The translations under genes and the position numbers were made by a program. A stretch of 64,000 nucleotides of DNA from Minisyncoccota bacterium (GTDB taxonomy: Bacteria > Patescibacteriota > Minisyncoccia > Phycocordibacterales > UBA9973): NCBI GenBank assembly GCA_942491275.1, contig CALNZI010000004.1:3305-67304 (forward strand), written 5' to 3'. The first letter of the stretch is position 1. Every line of letters starts with the position of its first letter. The notes under the pieces were generated by a model. It had not been told where the DNA came from. It saw only the letters and a list, made by a program, of their open reading frames with translations, and did not search any database. Positions 10,880 to 26,738 of this stretch are shown here, one piece after another.

Positions 10880-11080
10880 TTATATCATAATCTCAGGACG
10901 ACAAGCTTAAAGTTCCCGTTTCTTGGTTTATCGTACTTGTCGTCAGGAATAATTTTCTCGCCGTCGCTCTAAAATTTTCACGACCCTGCCTCGCCTATTT
11001 TTTCTGCTAAAAAAATTATGGCTCCGGCTCGGACAAGCTAAAAATCCCCAGCAGTGGGGATTTTTTACGCTTGTCCCCAG
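10880..11080. repeat. copy (a) of a ~200-nt structured intergenic repeat family
   Basis: Ends in the composite hairpin cggacaagc-taaaa-atcccca-GCAG-tggggat-tttttta-cgcttgtcc (11030..11077), near-identical to 15061..15110. Shares a cacgaccc(t/c)g..ctcg core with copies (b) and (c). Confidence 0.55.
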
Positions 11081-13254: not shown

Positions 13255-13845
13255 TTATTTTATGTGTTCATGCACTATTTTTTTTAATTCAGACTCATCG
13301 GTGAATACAAAGGCTTTAATCTTGACTTCCTCACTAGCTTTTACATTTTCTTCTTTATCATCAAAATATAAACATTCTTCTGGGTTTAAGTTGTTTTCAG
13401 ATAAAACTAATTTCCAGGCTTCTAGATTAGGTTTAATAAAACCTGTTTGCCAAGAAAAATAAGCTTTATCTACAACTTTTTGCATCCAAGGATAATGTCC
13501 ATAATGCTCTGCTCTTTCTTTAAAATTGTTTGAAAGCATAAATATTTTAATTCCTTTTTCTTTTAATTCTTTTGAAAAAGATATCATTTCTTCCGAAGGA
13601 TATTCTTCTTTAAACCAATAGTTCCAAAACTTTTCTTCATTTAAATTTAAGTTCCATTTTTTAAATAAAGGCTCCCAATATGTAAAAGCTGGTTTTGAAT
13701 TAGGTTTTCTAACTTCTCCCATTATTTTAAATAACTCAGGTAAAAAAACAGAAGTTGGTATATTAAAATCTTCCTCGAATCTATCTCCTAGTTTTCTGCT
13801 TTTTATAAATATTCCATTTAAATCAAAAATTATTGCTTTTATCAT
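13255..13845 (-). CDS. HAD-superfamily hydrolase
   Basis: IIFDLNGIF (DxN motif I), LSNN and YFDDKEENV (motif IV). Confidence 0.8.
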   Translation of the reverse strand: MIKAIIFDLNGIFIKSRKLGDRFEEDFNIPTSVFLPELFKIMGEVRKPNSKPAFTYWEPLFKKWNLNLNEEKFWNYWFKEEYPSEEMISFSKELKEKGIKIFMLSNNFKERAEHYGHYPWMQKVVDKAYFSWQTGFIKPNLEAWKLVLSENNLNPEECLYFDDKEENVKASEEVKIKAFVFTDESELKKIVHEHIK

Positions 13846-14807
13846 ATTATTCTTATTTTATTAAAATTTTTACCAACTAAACCTTCAATTGAAATATCTT
13901 CAAAAATAAACTCTGATTTTTCTAATTGAGAAGGGGAAAGGACATATTCAATAAATTCATCATCTTTCTTTTTTAACACACCAACTCCTGGCCAAAACTT
14001 CGCTACAGATGTTTTAGTGGTTCCCACCGGAATACAATTATCCATTTTTATACAAAAAACTTTTATCTTTTCTTTTGTATTGTTGTATGCACGTCTTTTT
14101 GGAAGTGTATAATATGCTTGATGTAGTAATTCAACTTTTTCTCTCCAAAGAGGGTCTTTGTCTTGACCAGGTTTTAACCGAACATTTAATTCAACCATTC
14201 CTCTGGTGTGATCATTTAAAACTGGTAATCCACCAAGTTGATTTTCCATTTCCGAAATCTTTTCTTTTAAGGTTTCTTCAAATTCCTCAGTAGTATAATG
14301 TGAACTAACTGGAGTTAGGCTAAATTTAATGTTTTTTGGTAAATAATTTTTAAGAAAATCAAAAATCATATTTAGACTTTTTGCATAATCTTCCGTATCT
14401 TTTTTAGGGATATTATTTATTCTCTCAACTATTACATCATCAGAACTAAAATCAAATAATATCCCAGGTTTGTAAACTTCTAAAATTGGTTTAAGCCATT
14501 TCACGTAATACATTAAAGTAAATAACTCCGCCCAATCTGCCTCAGGAGTTTCTTCTAGTCGCCAAAGCTTATATGCCCCAAAAGGGAAAATTAATTTAAT
14601 TGGTAAGTTGTTTTTTATACTATTCTCAATTACCCCATGAATTTGTGGTATATATTCTAAATTTACGCTAAATTTTCTAAACTTTTTAGACATAAGTTTT
14701 TTAAAAATATAATCTGTTAGGTCTTTATCAGAATTAAAAGAGACCTCTGTTTTCTCAGTAGATCTTAATTTTTCTAATTTTTTCTCAATAAATTCTTGTG
14801 CTTTCAT
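13842..14807 (-). CDS. hypothetical protein (weak motif-level resemblance to DIT1/PvcA-type enzymes)
   Basis: FPFGAYK...PEADWAEL...YKPGILFDFSSDD loosely recalls the FP.KS...PD.AE...Y.PG...SDG pattern. Very tentative. The start codon lies 2 nt after the tRNA-Cys 3' end. Confidence 0.5.
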   Translation of the reverse strand: MKAQEFIEKKLEKLRSTEKTEVSFNSDKDLTDYIFKKLMSKKFRKFSVNLEYIPQIHGVIENSIKNNLPIKLIFPFGAYKLWRLEETPEADWAELFTLMYYVKWLKPILEVYKPGILFDFSSDDVIVERINNIPKKDTEDYAKSLNMIFDFLKNYLPKNIKFSLTPVSSHYTTEEFEETLKEKISEMENQLGGLPVLNDHTRGMVELNVRLKPGQDKDPLWREKVELLHQAYYTLPKRRAYNNTKEKIKVFCIKMDNCIPVGTTKTSVAKFWPGVGVLKKKDDEFIEYVLSPSQLEKSEFIFEDISIEGLVGKNFNKIRII

Positions 14808-15269: not shown

Positions 15270-17003
15270 ATGAAGGTAACTAAAACTCCAAAATTTGATG
15301 CATTTTTAGATAAAATATTAGCTGACCTTGTTCCACATACTAGGGTTTGTTTTGATTGTAAAAAAGAATTTAATATAGAAGAAGAAGACATTGAGTTTTT
15401 TAAGATTTTTAGGGTTCCAGCTCCGAAACTTTGTCCAGATTGTCGTCAGAGGAATAGGCTCGCTTTTGCTAACTATTCAAATATATATAAAAGAAAATGC
15501 GATGTTCCCGGCCACGAGGATGTCATGATTTCATACGTGGCTCCAATAATGCCTTGGGTTACCTATGACTATGAAACATATTATTCTGATAAATGGGATC
15601 CACTTTCCTATGGACGAGAAATAGACGATGAAAAAAGTTTTCTGGAGCAATATTTAGAATTATTAAAAGTTGTCCCCATTGCAGGGGTTCGTCGTGGAGC
15701 AAATTCTATAAATTGTGATTTCAGTTTTTACGGCAAAGACATGAAGGATTGTTATTATCTTTTTGGAGGAAGACGATCGGAAGATATTATGTTTAGTTCT
15801 TCTATTTATAATTCAAAGAATGTAATGGATTCCTATTTTCTTCTTGACGTGGAGGGAGCTTTTCAAAATATTATAACCAGTGATTGTTATAAAAATAAAT
15901 ATGCTTATTTCTCCTCGAATTGTGTAGAATCTGATTTTATTTTTGATTGCAGAAATTGTCAAAATTGTTTTGGCTGTGTAAACCTTAGAAATAAAAATTA
16001 TTGTTATTTTAATCAACAACTTACAAAAGAAGAATATTTAAAAAAACGAGCGGAGATTGATTTAGGGGATAGAAAAACAAATGAAGAATATCAAAATAAA
16101 TTTTGGAATTTTGTGAAAGAAAACCCCATCAGAGCCACTAGAATTTTAAAATCAGAAAATTGTGTAGGTAATGACATAAAAGAATCAAGGAATTTGTATA
16201 ATGTTTGTCAGGCTGATAATTGTGACAACATAAGACACGCGGCTTTTGCTGTTATGAGCTTGAAAGACTCTATGGATATAAATCATTCCGGTGGAGGGGG
16301 AGGAAGACTCTATCATTGCCAGAATGCTGGGACTAAATCGTCCGATGTTAAATTTTCTTTTTCTGTCAAGGAATGTTCAGAGTGTGAATATATGATTTTT
16401 TCTAATAATTGCCAGAATTGTTTTGGTTGTTCTGGCATTAAAAATGCTTCCTATTCAATTTTTAATAAAAAGTACGAACCCGAAGAGTACTGGAAAAAAC
16501 TTGATGAAATAAAAACTAAAATGTTAGAAGATGGAACATACGGGGAGTTTTTCCCAATGTCTTTTTCTCCAATTGCCTATAATAGTTCCTTTGCCCATGT
16601 GATATATCCAATGGCAGAAAAAGAAGCCAAAGAAAGAGGTCTTTTCTGGCAACCTGAAAGTGACGTGGATATAAAAAATTTAAAAAGCATTGAAGCAAGT
16701 GAACTACCGGCTAATATTAATGATGTTGATTATGATATTTGCGATGTTGCTATTATCGGAGAAAAATCAAAAAAACCCTTTAGGTTGATAAAAAGAGAGA
16801 TTGATTTCTATAAACAAAATAAAATTTCTCTTCCTACGGATACCCCTTATCAGAGGATGTTAGATCGTTTCAAGATTTTAAATAACTTTAAAATTTTTGA
16901 TGAAATTTGTGATTCTTGTGGATTGTCTATAAAATCAGCTTATTTAAAAAAGGATGGATATAAACCATATTGTGAAAAATGTTATCAAAGAGAGGTTTTG
17001 TAA
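15270..17003 (+). CDS. cysteine-rich paralog family, copy 1 (subfamily I, 577 aa)
   Basis: Full-length homology to 33413..35164: KTP(K/Q)FD...LVPH.R.C, CRNC.(N/D)CFGCVNLRN, YGEFFP, ASELP..IN(D/E)V, ...YCEKCYQ(R/Q)EV(L/V)-stop. tgatataat at 15255..15263 lies 6 nt before the ATG. Confidence 0.85.
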   Translation: MKVTKTPKFDAFLDKILADLVPHTRVCFDCKKEFNIEEEDIEFFKIFRVPAPKLCPDCRQRNRLAFANYSNIYKRKCDVPGHEDVMISYVAPIMPWVTYDYETYYSDKWDPLSYGREIDDEKSFLEQYLELLKVVPIAGVRRGANSINCDFSFYGKDMKDCYYLFGGRRSEDIMFSSSIYNSKNVMDSYFLLDVEGAFQNIITSDCYKNKYAYFSSNCVESDFIFDCRNCQNCFGCVNLRNKNYCYFNQQLTKEEYLKKRAEIDLGDRKTNEEYQNKFWNFVKENPIRATRILKSENCVGNDIKESRNLYNVCQADNCDNIRHAAFAVMSLKDSMDINHSGGGGGRLYHCQNAGTKSSDVKFSFSVKECSECEYMIFSNNCQNCFGCSGIKNASYSIFNKKYEPEEYWKKLDEIKTKMLEDGTYGEFFPMSFSPIAYNSSFAHVIYPMAEKEAKERGLFWQPESDVDIKNLKSIEASELPANINDVDYDICDVAIIGEKSKKPFRLIKREIDFYKQNKISLPTDTPYQRMLDRFKILNNFKIFDEICDSCGLSIKSAYLKKDGYKPYCEKCYQREVL

Positions 17004-17041
17004 AGAGGTCAAATTATTATAAATATAAGTAGAAAAATGAT

Positions 17042-17428
17042 ATGAAAATAATTTTAGTGGATGCAGTTCATTGTTTTGTTTCAAAAGAAGGAGAGATTTT
17101 TGATGATATGTATAGACTACTGGAAACATATGTAAATAAAAAGATTATTCTTACTGGAGCAAATGATGAGCAATTTAAAAAGTTTGGTTTAGATAAAATG
17201 CCCTACGAAGTTTTTACACTAAAGCATGATCCAGAAAAAACTGATCCAGAATATTATAAAATTTTCTTAAATACATATAATTTAAGTAAAGATGATGTTA
17301 TTTATTTTGAACATGACATGGAAGCCATGAAGAGTGCGCAATCTGTGGGGATTAATAGTTATTATTATGATAATGATAAAAAAGATTTAGAAGGCTTAAA
17401 AAACTTTTTAGATGAGAATTTGAAATAA
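17042..17428 (+). CDS. small HAD-like hydrolase-fold protein
   Basis: MKIILVDAVHCFV (DxV-type motif I) and IYFEHDMEAMKSAQSVGI. Weak. Confidence 0.4.
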   Translation: MKIILVDAVHCFVSKEGEIFDDMYRLLETYVNKKIILTGANDEQFKKFGLDKMPYEVFTLKHDPEKTDPEYYKIFLNTYNLSKDDVIYFEHDMEAMKSAQSVGINSYYYDNDKKDLEGLKNFLDENLK

Positions 17429-17465
17429 AAGAAATTATGTTATAATAGTTCCACAACTAAATATT

Positions 17466-17656
17466 AATTATCAAGAGTATGGAGATCCTCCTTCGTATAA
17501 ACTACGGACGGAGAGCGAGCACTGGCTCGATGACCCATCAGCAACCCTCATTTATACGAGTAGGTGCTAAATCCAGCCCGATAAAGTGAAAACTTTATTC
17601 AGGAAAGATAAATGGAAGTAGTTTATCTTTCCCCATTATGGGGATTTTTTATTTTC
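17466..17656 (+). promoter_or_regulatory. SAM-I (S-box) riboswitch with intrinsic terminator
   Basis: aTTATCAAGAG...GGAGAGcgagcACTGGCTCGATGAcCCatCAGCAACC...AGGTGCTAAATCCAGC...GAAAGATAAat matches the S-box core, with an extra hairpin inserted in P2. Terminator ccccattatgggg+T-run at 17631..17656. tgttataat -10 box at 17438..17446. Confidence 0.85.
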
Positions 17657-17667
17657 AAATTTACAAA

Positions 17668-17775
17668 ATGCTTAAAAAAACACCACAACAGAAAGAAGAT
17701 ACAGTCATGGTTTTTGTCATGATGTGGCCCATTTGGGCGGCAGGCCTAGGTCTTTTGTTTTATATAGTTTTTTAA
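17668..17775 (+). CDS. 35-aa Met-rich hydrophobic micro-ORF directly downstream of the SAM riboswitch
   Basis: MLKKTPQQKEDTVMVFVMMWPIWAAGLGLLFYIVF, translated by hand. Starts 12 nt after the riboswitch terminator T-run. One predicted TM helix. Confidence 0.35.
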   Translation: MLKKTPQQKEDTVMVFVMMWPIWAAGLGLLFYIVF

Positions 17776-17809
17776 AGAAAATTTTAGGCTTTATGATACA
17801 ATTTAGTAT

Positions 17810-18286
17810 ATGAAAAAAATAGATGCAGTTTTAATACTTCCAGATATTCGTAGTGCTATCAATGTGGGAGCTATTTTTAGAACTGCAGATGCTGTGGGGA
17901 TCAATAAAATATTTCTGACGGGTTACACTCCACGACCAACTGATAAATTTAATCGGATTCAAAAAGATATTGCTAAAAGCGCTCTTGGATCTGAAACTTG
18001 GATTGACTGGGAGTATAAAAAAACTCTCACCCTTCTTTTAAATAATTTAAAGAAAAAAGGATATGAAATTATTGCCCTTGAGCAGGATGAAAGAGCAGTG
18101 GATTATCGTAAGCTTAAAATATCCAATAAGGTAGCTTTTATTTTAGGACCAGAGGTTCTAGGTTTAGATAAAAAGATATTGGATAAGTGCGATCAAATAA
18201 CTTACATTCCAATGTACGGCAAAAAAGAATCCCTCAATGTGTCAGTTTCCTGTGGAATTGCTTTATTTAAAATTTTGAAACCTTAG
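17810..18286 (+). CDS. SpoU/TrmH-family RNA 2'-O-methyltransferase
   Basis: NVGAIFRTADAVG, LILGPE-like FILGPEVLGL and IPMYGKKESLNVSVSCGIALF (SPOUT knot motifs). tgatacaat at 17794..17802. Confidence 0.85.
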   Translation: MKKIDAVLILPDIRSAINVGAIFRTADAVGINKIFLTGYTPRPTDKFNRIQKDIAKSALGSETWIDWEYKKTLTLLLNNLKKKGYEIIALEQDERAVDYRKLKISNKVAFILGPEVLGLDKKILDKCDQITYIPMYGKKESLNVSVSCGIALFKILKP

Positions 18287-18477
18287 TTGCTACTTCCGAA
18301 AGTATTTATTTCAGTTGTTGGTGGCCAAGACTGGTCCTCAATAATTTTTTCTTCTTTTTCTCCATTAGGCCCCCCTGTTAGTATCCAAATGATAAAGAGA
18401 GCCAGGACAAATAAAAGGAAAATGGTTCCAATTCCCAGTCCCCCCAATATGTCTTTTTCTTCTTTTATTTCTGCCAT
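18283..18477 (-). CDS. small single-TM membrane protein
   Basis: LGIGTIFLLFVLALFIIWILTG. Co-directional with and just downstream of fpg. Preferred over the overlapping plus-strand ORF 18287..18517. Confidence 0.4.
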   Translation of the reverse strand: MAEIKEEKDILGGLGIGTIFLLFVLALFIIWILTGGPNGEKEEKIIEDQSWPPTTEINTFGSSN

Positions 18478-18520
18478 TTTAAATAATTATGAATTAATAA
18501 TTAATAATTACGAATAAAAA

Positions 18521-19465
18521 TCAAAACAGTTTTTGGTGAAGGCTACAAAAATGAGCACTCCTACCATTAATAACTTTTCTAATTATAACACCAGAACACC
18601 TCTTTTTGCCACATTTTTCACCTTTTCTCTGATAGGCGTTGTGTTTTCCTTGAAAATCGCCTTTTCCTCCATCTATATTTCTATAGTCAGAAGTTGAATC
18701 ACCACCAAGCTTTATTCCTTTATTGAGGACTTCTTTCATGGACTTAAAAAGGAGCTTTATTTGGGGTAAGGGGACATTACCGGGCTTAGACTCAGGATGA
18801 ACTCCAGAAAGCCACAACATTTCATCTGAATAAATATTACCAATTCCAGAAATAACAGATTGATCCATTAAAATTGTTTTTATTTTTCTGTTCTTTTTTG
18901 TATCTAATCTTTCTCGGAATTTATCTAAGGTGAATTTAGTTTCAAGGGGTTCGGGCCCTAGCTCATCCAGTCCAGAAATTTTATTGTTGATATCTTCAGT
19001 AGGGAATATGGTTACTTTCCCAAATTTTCGAGCATCACAGAAAACTAAATGATTATTTTTTGAAAAAGAAAAGACTGCGTGGATGAATCGGTTATAGGGG
19101 TCATGTAATTCTTTTCTCTCATTTTTTGCTGGTTTCCAACTTACTACTTGTTGCTTGCCACTTATTACTTTTTCGTATCTTCCAAAAATAAGATGGCCGG
19201 TCATTTTTAAATGAATTAAAATAGTTTTTTTATTATTTAAATGAATTAATATATTTTTTGCTCGCCTTTCTACTTTTAAAATTTTTACACCAATTATTTC
19301 TTTTTTGAATTTTTTGAAGAACAAGTCATTTTTTATAGTATTCTCAAATTGTTTGATTGTTTGGTTTTTTACAGCTAAATCGGTCCAAACATCCAAAATA
19401 ACAAGCCCCGGAAGGACTTTTTTGAGACCGTTTACTGTAGTAGTGACTTCAGGTAATTCAGGCAT
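18521..19465 (-). CDS. mutM: formamidopyrimidine-DNA glycosylase
   Basis: N-terminal MPELPEV, H2TH region and C-terminal zinc finger C..C...C. Confidence 0.9.
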   Translation of the reverse strand: MPELPEVTTTVNGLKKVLPGLVILDVWTDLAVKNQTIKQFENTIKNDLFFKKFKKEIIGVKILKVERRAKNILIHLNNKKTILIHLKMTGHLIFGRYEKVISGKQQVVSWKPAKNERKELHDPYNRFIHAVFSFSKNNHLVFCDARKFGKVTIFPTEDINNKISGLDELGPEPLETKFTLDKFRERLDTKKNRKIKTILMDQSVISGIGNIYSDEMLWLSGVHPESKPGNVPLPQIKLLFKSMKEVLNKGIKLGGDSTSDYRNIDGGKGDFQGKHNAYQRKGEKCGKKRCSGVIIRKVINGRSAHFCSLHQKLF

Positions 19466-23980: not shown

Positions 23981-25096
23981 TTATTTGTAAATTTCGATGT
24001 TTTCCAAAATGTAATCATCGTTTTCTTCGCATACGATTCCAACGCTATATCTAGCACGTGTAAGTCCAACATAAAACTTAGCTCTAGCCTCGTCTGAGAA
24101 CTTATGATCATGATTCTTCATCCATTTTATCATATCACTCGTTGGATAGATAAGAACTCGATCAAATGATAACCCTTTTGACAATCCAAGATTATTTACA
24201 GTATATTTTAAATTAATATTTTTTGTTAAAGAATTCCATCTTAATTGAACTGGATTGTACGTCTCTAGGTATTTCTTAATATTAGTATTCTTAACTAAAA
24301 ATATTCCATCATGACCAGTAACACTATCTTGTGCAGAAAAACATGGTTTAAAAGTGCTGTATAGCTTGTTTGAGTACACACATATTTTCTCATTACATCT
24401 GTGTGAGTGAGAAAGTGTATGATTATCTATTTCAAAATTAATATTAGAACATTTGTCCTTTATAAACTCTTCTAATAATCCATTTCGGTATTTTCTGTAT
24501 TTACTTTCATTGTGAGTCAAATAAGTTACTTGTCTTGGGTCACAAACCATAATTAGATTCACTGGGCTCTCTGATAGCAGTCGTATAATATCAAGATCAT
24601 ATCCAGCTAAATCTTGACTTTCATCAATAAAGATATTTGGGTAGATATTAATAAGACGATCAATAATCTTCCCTTCAGATTTTTCATTAATCTTAATAAC
24701 AAGTTTTGAAAGTTTGTCTGAGTATATCTTTTTATTGTCTGTAAAATAGTATTGATTAAAGTTGCTTTCTCCCCAAAATACAGGGAAACCCTTTGGCGTT
24801 TTGTATCTAAAGCCAGATTGCTTATTTACTAGTAACATTCCATTAACATGAAAATCAAACAAAACACTTTGGTAAGGTTTAATACCGTGTTTTATCAATA
24901 GAGAAAACCATGTTTGAATTGTGACGTTTTTTGGTATATAGCCATTTATTTCAATAAATTTACTCCTAATTTCTTGCTCATTAGCCTCTGTAAATGTTGT
25001 AATTAGTACAGGATCATCTAAAATTTCAAGAGCCTCTTTAACAAGAAGTGTTGTTTTACCAGACCCGGCTGCAGATATTATCAGCTTATTTCCCAT
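23981..25096 (-). CDS. short UvrD/PcrA-like SF1 helicase (GajB-like partner of the OLD nuclease)
   Basis: Walker A AAGSGKTT, Walker B/DExx IFIDESQDL, VCDPRQ and C-terminal VGLTRARYSVGIV. Only 371 aa. Separated by 4 nt from the upstream OLD gene. Confidence 0.75.
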   Translation of the reverse strand: MGNKLIISAAGSGKTTLLVKEALEILDDPVLITTFTEANEQEIRSKFIEINGYIPKNVTIQTWFSLLIKHGIKPYQSVLFDFHVNGMLLVNKQSGFRYKTPKGFPVFWGESNFNQYYFTDNKKIYSDKLSKLVIKINEKSEGKIIDRLINIYPNIFIDESQDLAGYDLDIIRLLSESPVNLIMVCDPRQVTYLTHNESKYRKYRNGLLEEFIKDKCSNINFEIDNHTLSHSHRCNEKICVYSNKLYSTFKPCFSAQDSVTGHDGIFLVKNTNIKKYLETYNPVQLRWNSLTKNINLKYTVNNLGLSKGLSFDRVLIYPTSDMIKWMKNHDHKFSDEARAKFYVGLTRARYSVGIVCEENDDYILENIEIYK

Positions 25097-25100
25097 AGTT

Positions 25101-26738
25101 TTAAATTACATCCGAAATATAACTGGGATAATTAATTTTAATTTCGGAATTAAATATTTTTAAGGCACATTTAGTTTTGTTTTGATACATGTATTGAAGA
25201 ATCTCATTGTCATTTACAAACACTGTTTCAAACACCTCATTTAAAGTTTTAAGAGAATTTGCCTTTAGTATTTTAGGTTCAAGAGTATTATAATTGAATG
25301 CTCTCCCGTTAATAAGTAAATCTCCCTCATCAATTGTATAATCAAAGGAAATATTGATATGTGGTTTGGCTTTTTTCCCAATGAAATTTCCGTATTTCTT
25401 TTTGATTGCTCCTATACTCCAATCAGTATCTGTAATAACAATCGTAGGTTTTTCAATTTTATCAGCAATTTCAAGAAATCGTAAAAACGAAGTACCAACA
25501 GAGATTACGTCAACACCGTTTTCAATTGGGAGCTTCCCGTCGTATTTATCAGCGTATGCTTTTTGTACAATAAGTTCATCAGAATCACCTTCAACTAGTA
25601 TTGCTTGTTTACATAGTATTAACCTTAAGGTGTCATAACCTGATAATTTTTGAAAATATTGAAAAGTTTCTTCAGTTAGTTCAGACAATCTAGTAGTTTG
25701 AGGATTGTTAAGTAAAATTAGACTATCTAAGCCTAATTTATTTGCCACAAAACTACTATGAGTAGATATGATAATCTGCTTATTTTGCCCCCCTGTCTTT
25801 AGCTCATTTATTAAGTAATTCAATCTTGAATGAGACAAATGATTCTCTGGTTCTTCAATAAGTAAAACGTTAGCTTCTTGAATTTTTTTATGATTTAAAG
25901 CTAATTTGGTTTTTATAATAGATTGTTCTCCTTTTCCTAAATGATGAAATGGTATTTCATCTAAGTATGTAACTAGTGAATTTTCCCATGCATTTTTAGA
26001 AGAAAGTTCCACGGAGAGTTCTACTTTTTTATTTGATATTTTTGAGTCTGTTTGTATTTTCTCATTGATTGCTTTAATTGCCTCTTCTTGCATGAAAAAA
26101 TCTTTCATCTTACGATGTGCTTGAGAGACATTTATTACTTCTTCGGGTTTCAAAAAATCTTTAATTATTCTGCTGATATATATATCTGAACCATTTTGAT
26201 TACGATTATTTACAGAATCAATTAATGCTGATTTTATAGGAATTAACCTAGGAGTAATTTTTTCATCTCTTGCGAAGGACTCCCAATAATAATGATAGTA
26301 TTCTATTGGTAATGAGCTTATACTTCCCTCCTTCAATAAAAACTCGTACTCTTCTTTATACTTTTCATCAAATTTAATTTGGAAGGTAAGTCCTAATAAA
26401 TCAGATTGTTCACTATTCTTATTTCCTCTAAGAAAATGAGGAGAATCTCCTGAGAAGTAAACCTCGATGCTAATAGATGGTGGAAGGACACCTTGACCCT
26501 CCTTTATGTTTTTAAGATACTCTGCAACTATCTGGTTGTTAAATATACATTGATTTAATTCATTGTAAAAATATCTACCATTAAACCAGCCAGATAATGC
26601 AAGATGGATCGCTTCAATAATTGTTGATTTTCCAGCTTCATTATCACCAGCAATAATATTTAACCCTTTCTCTAAAGAAAGGCTAAATTCGTCGTAGAAA
26701 CACTTAAAGTTTTTGATTTTAATTTTCTCAATATGCAT
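25101..26738 (-). CDS. OLD-family ATP-dependent endonuclease (ABC-type ATPase plus TOPRIM), GajA-like
   Basis: Walker A GDNEAGKST, signature-like GKGEQS, Walker B LLIEEPENHLSHS and STHS. TOPRIM motifs ILVEGDSDE and VITDTD. Confidence 0.85.
   Translation of the reverse strand: MHIEKIKIKNFKCFYDEFSLSLEKGLNIIAGDNEAGKSTIIEAIHLALSGWFNGRYFYNELNQCIFNNQIVAEYLKNIKEGQGVLPPSISIEVYFSGDSPHFLRGNKNSEQSDLLGLTFQIKFDEKYKEEYEFLLKEGSISSLPIEYYHYYWESFARDEKITPRLIPIKSALIDSVNNRNQNGSDIYISRIIKDFLKPEEVINVSQAHRKMKDFFMQEEAIKAINEKIQTDSKISNKKVELSVELSSKNAWENSLVTYLDEIPFHHLGKGEQSIIKTKLALNHKKIQEANVLLIEEPENHLSHSRLNYLINELKTGGQNKQIIISTHSSFVANKLGLDSLILLNNPQTTRLSELTEETFQYFQKLSGYDTLRLILCKQAILVEGDSDELIVQKAYADKYDGKLPIENGVDVISVGTSFLRFLEIADKIEKPTIVITDTDWSIGAIKKKYGNFIGKKAKPHINISFDYTIDEGDLLINGRAFNYNTLEPKILKANSLKTLNEVFETVFVNDNEILQYMYQNKTKCALKIFNSEIKINYPSYISDVI

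Follow-up and report, generated by a model that had tools for sequence, protein, structure and literature searches.

A 64-kb stretch of DNA with 32% G+C, here called the window, carries a SAM-I (S-box) riboswitch with its own promoter and terminator, and the first ORF downstream of the switch encodes a 35-residue hydrophobic peptide. On balance we favor reading the locus as a transcription unit that is repressed by SAM and dedicated to making this small membrane peptide. The host genome is Paceibacteria-like (Patescibacteria), that of an ultra-small bacterium, and the closest relatives of the SPOUT methyltransferase encoded just beyond the peptide are from Paceibacteria, Nomurabacteria and other Patescibacteria MAGs, at 69–81% identity. 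When the 64-kb window was scanned with Rfam, eight tRNAs and one riboswitch (RF00162) were found. Literature searches, which were incomplete in coverage, returned no description of SAM riboswitches in Patescibacteria.

Aptamer, promoter and expression platform

The RF00162 (SAM-I) model matched the plus strand at 17465–17614 over its full length, model positions 1–108 of 108, with a cmscan score of 46.2 bits where the gathering score is 44.4 (E = 2.2e-7 for the whole 64-kb window and 1.5e-9 in a local scan). The margin over the gathering score is just 1.8 bits, and it is thin because the aptamer carries two insertions relative to the model, one in P2 (44 nt vs. 12) and one in the P4 loop (13 nt vs. 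3). The original prediction of a SAM-I riboswitch thus stands on a full-length match above threshold, and the S-box motifs it quoted are all present where it placed them on the plus strand: TTATCAAGAG (17468–77), GGAGAG (17510–15), ACTGGCTCGATGA (17521–33), CAGCAACC (17539–46), AGGTGCTAAATCCAGC (17562–77) and GAAAGATAA (17603–11). In the alignment to the model nearly all of the highly conserved core letters were matched, and the SAM-I core strings UUAUCAAGAG (17468–77), GCAACC (17541–46), GGUGCUAAAUCCAGC (17563–77) and GAAAGAUAA (17603–11) were all found.

The aptamer comprises P1, P2a, P2b, P3 and an extended P4. P1 is formed by 17468–72 paired with 17607–11. P2a, A17479–G17482 with C17535–U17538, is retained through compensated pairs, and P2b occupies 17516–29. 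The P2b loop CUGG (17522–25) is complementary to the J3/4 segment CCAG (17573–76), so that the pairing needed for the SAM-I pseudoknot is predicted to be available. When the aptamer was folded alone, the minimum-free-energy structure was the four-way junction (z = -2.6). P4 (17577–17604) is also extended, as an 8-bp helix, GAUAAAGU/ACUUUAUU, capped by a GAAA tetraloop. By sequence, these features identify the element as a SAM-I aptamer, although the usual SAM-I partner genes of methionine, cysteine or SAM metabolism or transport are not downstream; such an association is typical of the class and not structurally defining. The aptamer presumably binds SAM.

The promoter of the riboswitch transcript is the extended -10 box TGTTATAAT at 17438–17446 (+), a perfect TGnTAnAAT, and here too the original prediction, which gave the riboswitch its own promoter box, was borne out. 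Boxes of this type are found before many genes of the window, for example at 10887 (-), 11186, 15255, 17794, 22410, 27032, 43461 and 47750. Among 54 ORFs of at least 100 codons, 11 have such a box ending 5–9 nt 5' of the ATG. Shine-Dalgarno motifs are nearly absent from the genome. The combination of extended -10 boxes close to the ATG and scarce Shine-Dalgarno motifs suggests that leaderless mRNAs are widespread in this genome. No ATG follows the 17438 box in this way, and the riboswitch transcript therefore has a leader; its transcription start is likely to lie at about 17453.

Downstream of the aptamer, the scan for terminators confirmed the predicted intrinsic terminator, at 17630–17655 (+), where UCCCCAUUAUGGGGA is followed by UUUUUUAUUUU; the terminator-like hairpin itself occupies 17630–17644 and is followed by TTTTTTATTTT. 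An antiterminator helix lies at 17602–17632 (+), with GGAAAGAUAAA(U) paired with (G)UUUAUCUUUCC. When the whole leader is folded, the minimum-free-energy structure contains it as a 12-bp helix of GGAAAGAUAAAU (17602–13) and GUUUAUCUUUCC (17621–32), and as an inverted repeat (I4) it has 11 nt of 100% complementarity. The antiterminator shares nucleotides both with P1, in its 3' strand, and with the terminator, in the first 3 nt of its stem. The antiterminator and terminator are mutually exclusive, and the leader thus has the mutually exclusive helices on which a SAM-I expression platform depends. Termination would be expected to occur here in vivo.

The P2 insertion

An extra hairpin (the T-helix) was found within P2 at 17488–17513 (+), 26 nt with 10 bp, in all minimum-free-energy folds. 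It reads CUCC-UUCGUA-[UAAAC]-UACGGA-C-GGAG, with UAAAC as the loop and a single bulged C. The original prediction was right that P2 contains an extra hairpin, but the string that it quoted for the hairpin was wrong, the stable hairpin being that at 17488–17513. For the P2 domain the minimum-free-energy fold is a three-way junction at -19.7 kcal/mol, vs. -7.3 kcal/mol for an alternative with an uninterrupted k-turn.

The k-turn positions were read in the Lilley nomenclature. The bulge is on the 3' strand, in which the C helix (...GCUC) is followed by the bulge G17529-A-U17531, G1b at 17532, A2b at 17533 and C17534 at 3b. The non-bulged strand is the 5' strand, with A17483 at 3n, G2n at 17484 and A1n at 17485. 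The GAU bulge of the P2 k-turn is thus present, and the tandem G.A/A.G signature is kept as G17532.A17485 and A17533.G17484. On the non-bulged strand, the T-helix separates A1n (17485) from the C helix (17516) and is joined to them by the linkers UC and AG. A k-turn with a third helix on its non-bulged strand is a k-junction (PMC10573300, PMC4316175), and k-junctions are known from TPP riboswitches and the DUF-3268 RNA (PMC4005666, PMC10573300). Sequence and thermodynamics together suggest that the P2 k-turn has been expanded to form a three-way junction of k-junction topology. The candidate resembles the TPP and DUF-3268 k-junctions in its tandem G.A/A.G pairs, its 3-nt bulge (GAU here) and the placement of the third helix between A1n and the C helix. 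It differs from them in its setting, a SAM-I aptamer, a class that normally has a simple k-turn, in the 2-nt linkers (UC, AG) that flank its T-helix, and in that its fold is only predicted.

To place the insertion among other SAM-I aptamers, the spacing between J1/2 and the k-turn UGA was determined in 73 metagenomic SAM-I aptamers with a recognizable J1/2, taken from ordinary leaders of many phyla. The distance was 20–23 nt in 70 of the 73 and 11 nt in one; the longer spacings in the two others (35 and 40 nt) were artefacts. In the window aptamer the distance is 53 nt. No genuine P2 insert was found among the 73 control aptamers, and a scan of viral contigs for the riboswitch variant gave no matches.

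The micro-ORF and its neighbors

The first ORF downstream of the switch, at 17668–17775 (+), has 35 codons and encodes the hydrophobic peptide MLKKTPQQKEDTVMVFVMMWPIWAAGLGLLFYIVF. The translation, with its four Met, is exactly that given in the original prediction. The peptide consists of a polar N-terminus and one hydrophobic helix. The claim that no Met or SAM gene lies downstream of the switch also held, as next come this ORF, which has no family match, and then the SPOUT gene. No metK was found among the window proteins scanned, and the PALP enzyme and MFS transporter encoded in the window are not adjacent to the riboswitch locus. Searches with the peptide gave no matches in Pfam and NCBIfam, none with phmmer against 1.84 billion representative proteins, and none in a word-index protein search.

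Fifteen relatives were examined at the SPOUT orthologue (L002–L009, L134/5, L136–8, L139, L140–2, L147/8, L149–51 and L152), the orthologues having 69–81% identity to the window SPOUT. A homologue of the micro-ORF was found in one, L002 (JBBABB010000002.1, from MAG JBBABB01), whose SPOUT is 75% identical, and in none of the 14 others. The L002 ORF, at 2871–2981, encodes the 36-residue peptide MNEEDKDEKGMLIVLFWPIWVPAIIILIWLFSFVKY and is followed directly by the SPOUT promoter box. The two peptides have in common a polar N-terminus, a hydrophobic helix, a WPIW motif and their syntenic position. Their Smith-Waterman score is 59, with p = 5e-5 for plain shuffling and p = 0.001 for shuffling that preserves the polar and hydrophobic segments. 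The codons for the P and I of WPIW differ in their third positions between the window and L002. The charge of the N-terminus differs between the two peptides, about +1 vs. about -3. From this comparison the micro-ORF looks like a real gene, and its translation seems likely. No Shine-Dalgarno motif lies 5' of it.

The L002 homologue also bears on the start codon and on one proposed function. The micro-ORF is nested in a 45-codon ORF that starts at 17638. That longer form was rejected: the L002 homologue aligns with the 35-residue form, and a stop codon lies immediately 5' of the ATG of the L002 ORF, which favors the shorter form. The suggestion that the peptide is a 'Met-sink' was likewise abandoned, as Met-richness is not conserved, with four Met in the window peptide vs. 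only two in the L002 homologue. A scan of viral contigs for WPIW plus the promoter gave no matches, and a scan of 16900–18600 revealed no evident antisense promoter/terminator pair such as would accompany a type I toxin-like peptide.

The gene following the micro-ORF, at 17810–18286 (+), encodes a minimal SPOUT (TrmH/RlmB-like) 2'-O-ribose RNA methyltransferase of 158 aa, and starts 35 nt past the micro-ORF on the same strand. Its predicted identity was supported by a match to PF00588 (SpoU_methylase) of 118.5 bits vs. a gathering score of 29.7. Matches to the NCBIfam equivalogs RlmB and TrmH were under the cut-offs, and 3086 homologues were found at E <= 1e-40. The box TGATACAAT, predicted to precede SPOUT, is present at 17794–17802 (+), 7 nt 5' of the SPOUT ATG, as a leaderless-type promoter. 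SPOUT is one of the 11 ORFs with a TGnTAnAAT box 5–9 nt before the ATG and therefore has its own promoter, of which L002 has the conserved counterpart TGATATAAT. Upstream of the riboswitch lies a gene for a HAD-like hydrolase (17042–17428, +) with a weak HAD_2 match and 2780 homologues, which provides upstream context and is not regulated by the switch.

Several other genes of the contig were noted. Convergent with SPOUT, and overlapping its stop codon by 4 nt, is a gene at 18283–18477 (-) for a 64-aa single-pass membrane protein. This protein is conserved, at 64–87 aa, in L134, L136, L139, L140 and L152 and has no family match; in the Logan assembly L001 a 1-nt indel relative to the window falls at 18345, within this gene. 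The contig was also recovered by assembly of run ERR9669565. Just upstream of the locus are genes for a 577-aa cysteine-rich protein (15270–17003, +) without a Pfam or NCBIfam match and a 321-aa protein (13842–14807, -) with only a weak DIT1_PvcA-like match. Farther along the same Paceibacteria-like contig, at window positions 23981–26738 (-), is a Gabija defence pair, consisting of a 545-aa GajA (PADLOC PDLC00102, 685 bits; AAA_15 plus OLD-like TOPRIM) and a 371-aa GajB (PADLOC PDLC00148, 448 bits; UvrD-like helicase).

Downstream of SPOUT, synteny extends in at least six loci through a small membrane-protein gene and then fpg, ruvA and rpsT, and the region upstream of SPOUT varies in nearly every relative. 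In L136–L138, whose SPOUT is 81% identical to that of the window, the HAD gene occupies 346–738 and SPOUT begins at 743, so that HAD ends 4 nt before the SPOUT ATG. Window positions 17300–17428 are 81% identical to L136 613–741. As HAD and SPOUT abut in L136–L138, the segment 17429–17809 (+), containing the promoter, riboswitch, terminator, micro-ORF and SPOUT promoter, is a 381-nt module that is lacking there. The comparison indicates that the module is lineage-specific. In four further relatives the HAD orthologues have other genes immediately downstream. A mobile-element origin of the module was considered and rejected, as a search for direct or inverted repeats bordering it found none. In L149 (830–1200), and likewise in L150 and L151, a minus-strand tRNA lies upstream of the SPOUT orthologue. 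After the tRNA come two direct repeats, about 75 nt long and both terminating in a duplicate of the tRNA 3' end, and a tyrosine integrase gene is adjacent. These repeats look like integration (att) scars, and the arrangement suggests a hot spot of recombination upstream of SPOUT.

An alternative to the peptide as target is that the switch serves SPOUT, with read-through at low SAM adding SPOUT mRNA to sustain RNA 2'-O-methylation and the micro-ORF being a passenger or leader element. SPOUT is SAM-dependent, and its close, same-strand position would suit this reading. The intervening hairpin with a T-run, at 17731–17761 (+) inside the 3' end of the micro-ORF, was found in the terminator scan, but it is weak, with a folding energy no better than that of shuffled sequence (z = -0.5). 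An analogous hairpin with a T-run lies at the 3' end of the L002 micro-ORF, and the window hairpin may act as a leaky terminator. As there is no strong terminator between the micro-ORF and SPOUT, SPOUT may be co-regulated, and read-through into it is plausible; lack of a Shine-Dalgarno motif evidently does not prevent translation of internal genes here. Nevertheless, SPOUT has the leaderless-type promoter that is conserved in L002, it directly follows the HAD gene in L136–L138, and in L002 the coding sequence of the micro-ORF is maintained. Furthermore, no SAM riboswitch was found at the SPOUT locus of any of the 15 relatives, by Rfam at permissive E-values or by motif search. The loci compared indicate that SPOUT is not the conserved target of the switch, and we consider SPOUT unlikely to be the physiological one.

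The L002 leader deserves attention in its own right. Its promoter box, GCTATAAT at 2786–2794, is homologous to the window 17438 box. From window position 17452 through TTATCAAGAG, 21 of 25 aligned bases are identical to L002, with one gap. The 5' edge of the S-box reads TTACTAAGAG (...TTAnnAAGAG) in L002 and has the same offset from the -10 box as in the window; in about 217 kb of control sequence, counting both strands, about 4 chance matches were as good as this 25-base alignment or better. A terminator-like hairpin at 2835–2849 aligns with the window terminator. L002 has no aptamer, and no other small riboswitch takes its place, as no Rfam family was matched in the leader at E below about 0.7. 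The L002 terminator is apparently unconditional. The simplest history would have an ancestral module of promoter, S-box, terminator and micro-ORF, followed by SPOUT, from which L002 deleted the body of the aptamer. Under this history the link between switch and peptide is older than the split of the window and L002 lineages. L002 is also an example of the peptide gene persisting where the switch is absent, and the link is clouded by a homologue that has a terminator without an aptamer. Conservation of the micro-ORF downstream of S-boxes in related genomes, a check proposed with the original prediction, was not found: no second riboswitch came to light, and the sole homologue lacks the aptamer. 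Neither a further riboswitch nor a further micro-ORF was present on the contigs of the SPOUT and HAD homologues examined.

Another reading is that the riboswitch is an orphan that works as RNA, with a terminated leader of about 200 nt acting in trans or with the switch serving as a SAM-dependent insulator against read-through from HAD. The absence of a Met or SAM gene downstream, the lineage-specific module and the retention in L002 of promoter and terminator without the aptamer are in keeping with such a role. But the element has a strong extended -10 box of its own, which implies more than an insulator, the micro-ORF is conserved at the protein level, and no trans target can be proposed. We regard an orphan RNA as quite improbable. 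It is very improbable, finally, that the riboswitch is a relic in decay, its response to SAM lost because the large P2 insertion destroyed the k-turn and pseudoknot geometry: the score is barely over the gathering score, the P2 insert is unusual by comparison with the 73 control aptamers and the aptamer has already been lost in a sister lineage, but the conserved core, the tandem G.A/A.G, the pseudoknot complementarity and the perfect antiterminator/terminator pair are all intact, and the position of the insert is precisely the one at which a k-junction accommodates a third helix.

Proposed regulation and comparison with known systems

The favored reading, a SAM-repressed unit dedicated to the peptide, would work as follows. 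The SAM-I riboswitch would be a functional transcriptional OFF switch, with transcription beginning after the TGTTATAAT box at about 17453. With SAM bound, P1 (17468–72/17607–11) would hold, leaving 17621–32 free, so that the terminator at 17630–44 would form and RNA polymerase would halt in the T-run at about 17650. With SAM scarce, GGAAAGAUAAAU (17602–13) would pair with GUUUAUCUUUCC (17621–32), no terminator would form, and transcription would proceed. The first and most likely intended cistron would be the 35-aa single-pass membrane peptide (17668–17775), with SPOUT a secondary target at most, through read-through. The compact module of promoter, switch, terminator and micro-ORF would have been inserted between two housekeeping genes, and it would go back to an ancestor of at least two Paceibacteria lineages, with the aptamer subsequently lost from one of them. 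As to what the peptide does, our guess, by analogy with MgtS and MntS, is that it may be induced by SAM starvation and modulate membrane transport or physiology. The more specific proposal, that a k-junction SAM-I switch senses SAM starvation and has as its dedicated output a 35-aa peptide that adjusts uptake of host methionine or SAM, or arrests growth, is possible but doubtful.

This patescibacterial SAM-I riboswitch, with its k-junction-like P2 and its putative micro-protein cargo, is a variant of the known S-box kind. Like the S-box leaders of Bacillota (Bacillus subtilis yitJ, metI and metK; RF00162), it has a four-way junction, the conserved core, P2 loop-J3/4 pseudoknot complementarity and a predicted arrangement in which a ligand-stabilized P1 competes with an antiterminator, and an intrinsic terminator makes the whole an OFF switch. 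Unlike them, it is found in a Paceibacteria-like host of the Patescibacteria, and its downstream cistron encodes a 35-aa membrane peptide and is not a gene of Met, Cys or SAM metabolism or transport.

SAM riboswitches without a recognizable Met or SAM gene after them have precedents. In Listeria, SreA and SreB are SAM riboswitches that act in trans, and the ubiG operon of Clostridium acetobutylicum has an S-box-controlled antisense RNA. The window switch shares with these the lack of a recognizable Met or SAM gene downstream. It differs from them in having a conserved small ORF directly downstream on the same strand, and no antisense arrangement or trans target is evident in the window. For the peptide, functional parallels are offered by MgtS, which has 31 aa and a single transmembrane helix and is made at low Mg2+, and MntS, which has 42 aa and is made at low Mn2+. 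The likeness is that of a peptide of about 30–40 aa predicted to be made in response to a low nutrient signal, with a single transmembrane helix also in the case of MgtS, and it is a functional analogy only. There is no sequence similarity, the window peptide would be controlled by a riboswitch rather than a protein regulator, and no partner transporter has been identified for it.

With one riboswitch instance and one peptide homologue, the value of the locus is that of a lead and not a result. As a lead it is worth pursuing, since the genes associated with riboswitches are a proven guide to unknown biology. The elaborated P2 would supply a natural SAM-I example beside the few known k-junctions and, if the predicted fold is true, the first k-junction in a SAM-I aptamer. 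If the proposed cargo is likewise true, the 35-aa peptide would be a new class of riboswitch effector. In sum, a peptide that is the sole dedicated cargo of a SAM switch would point to a small-protein layer of SAM and methionine homeostasis in host-scavenging organisms.
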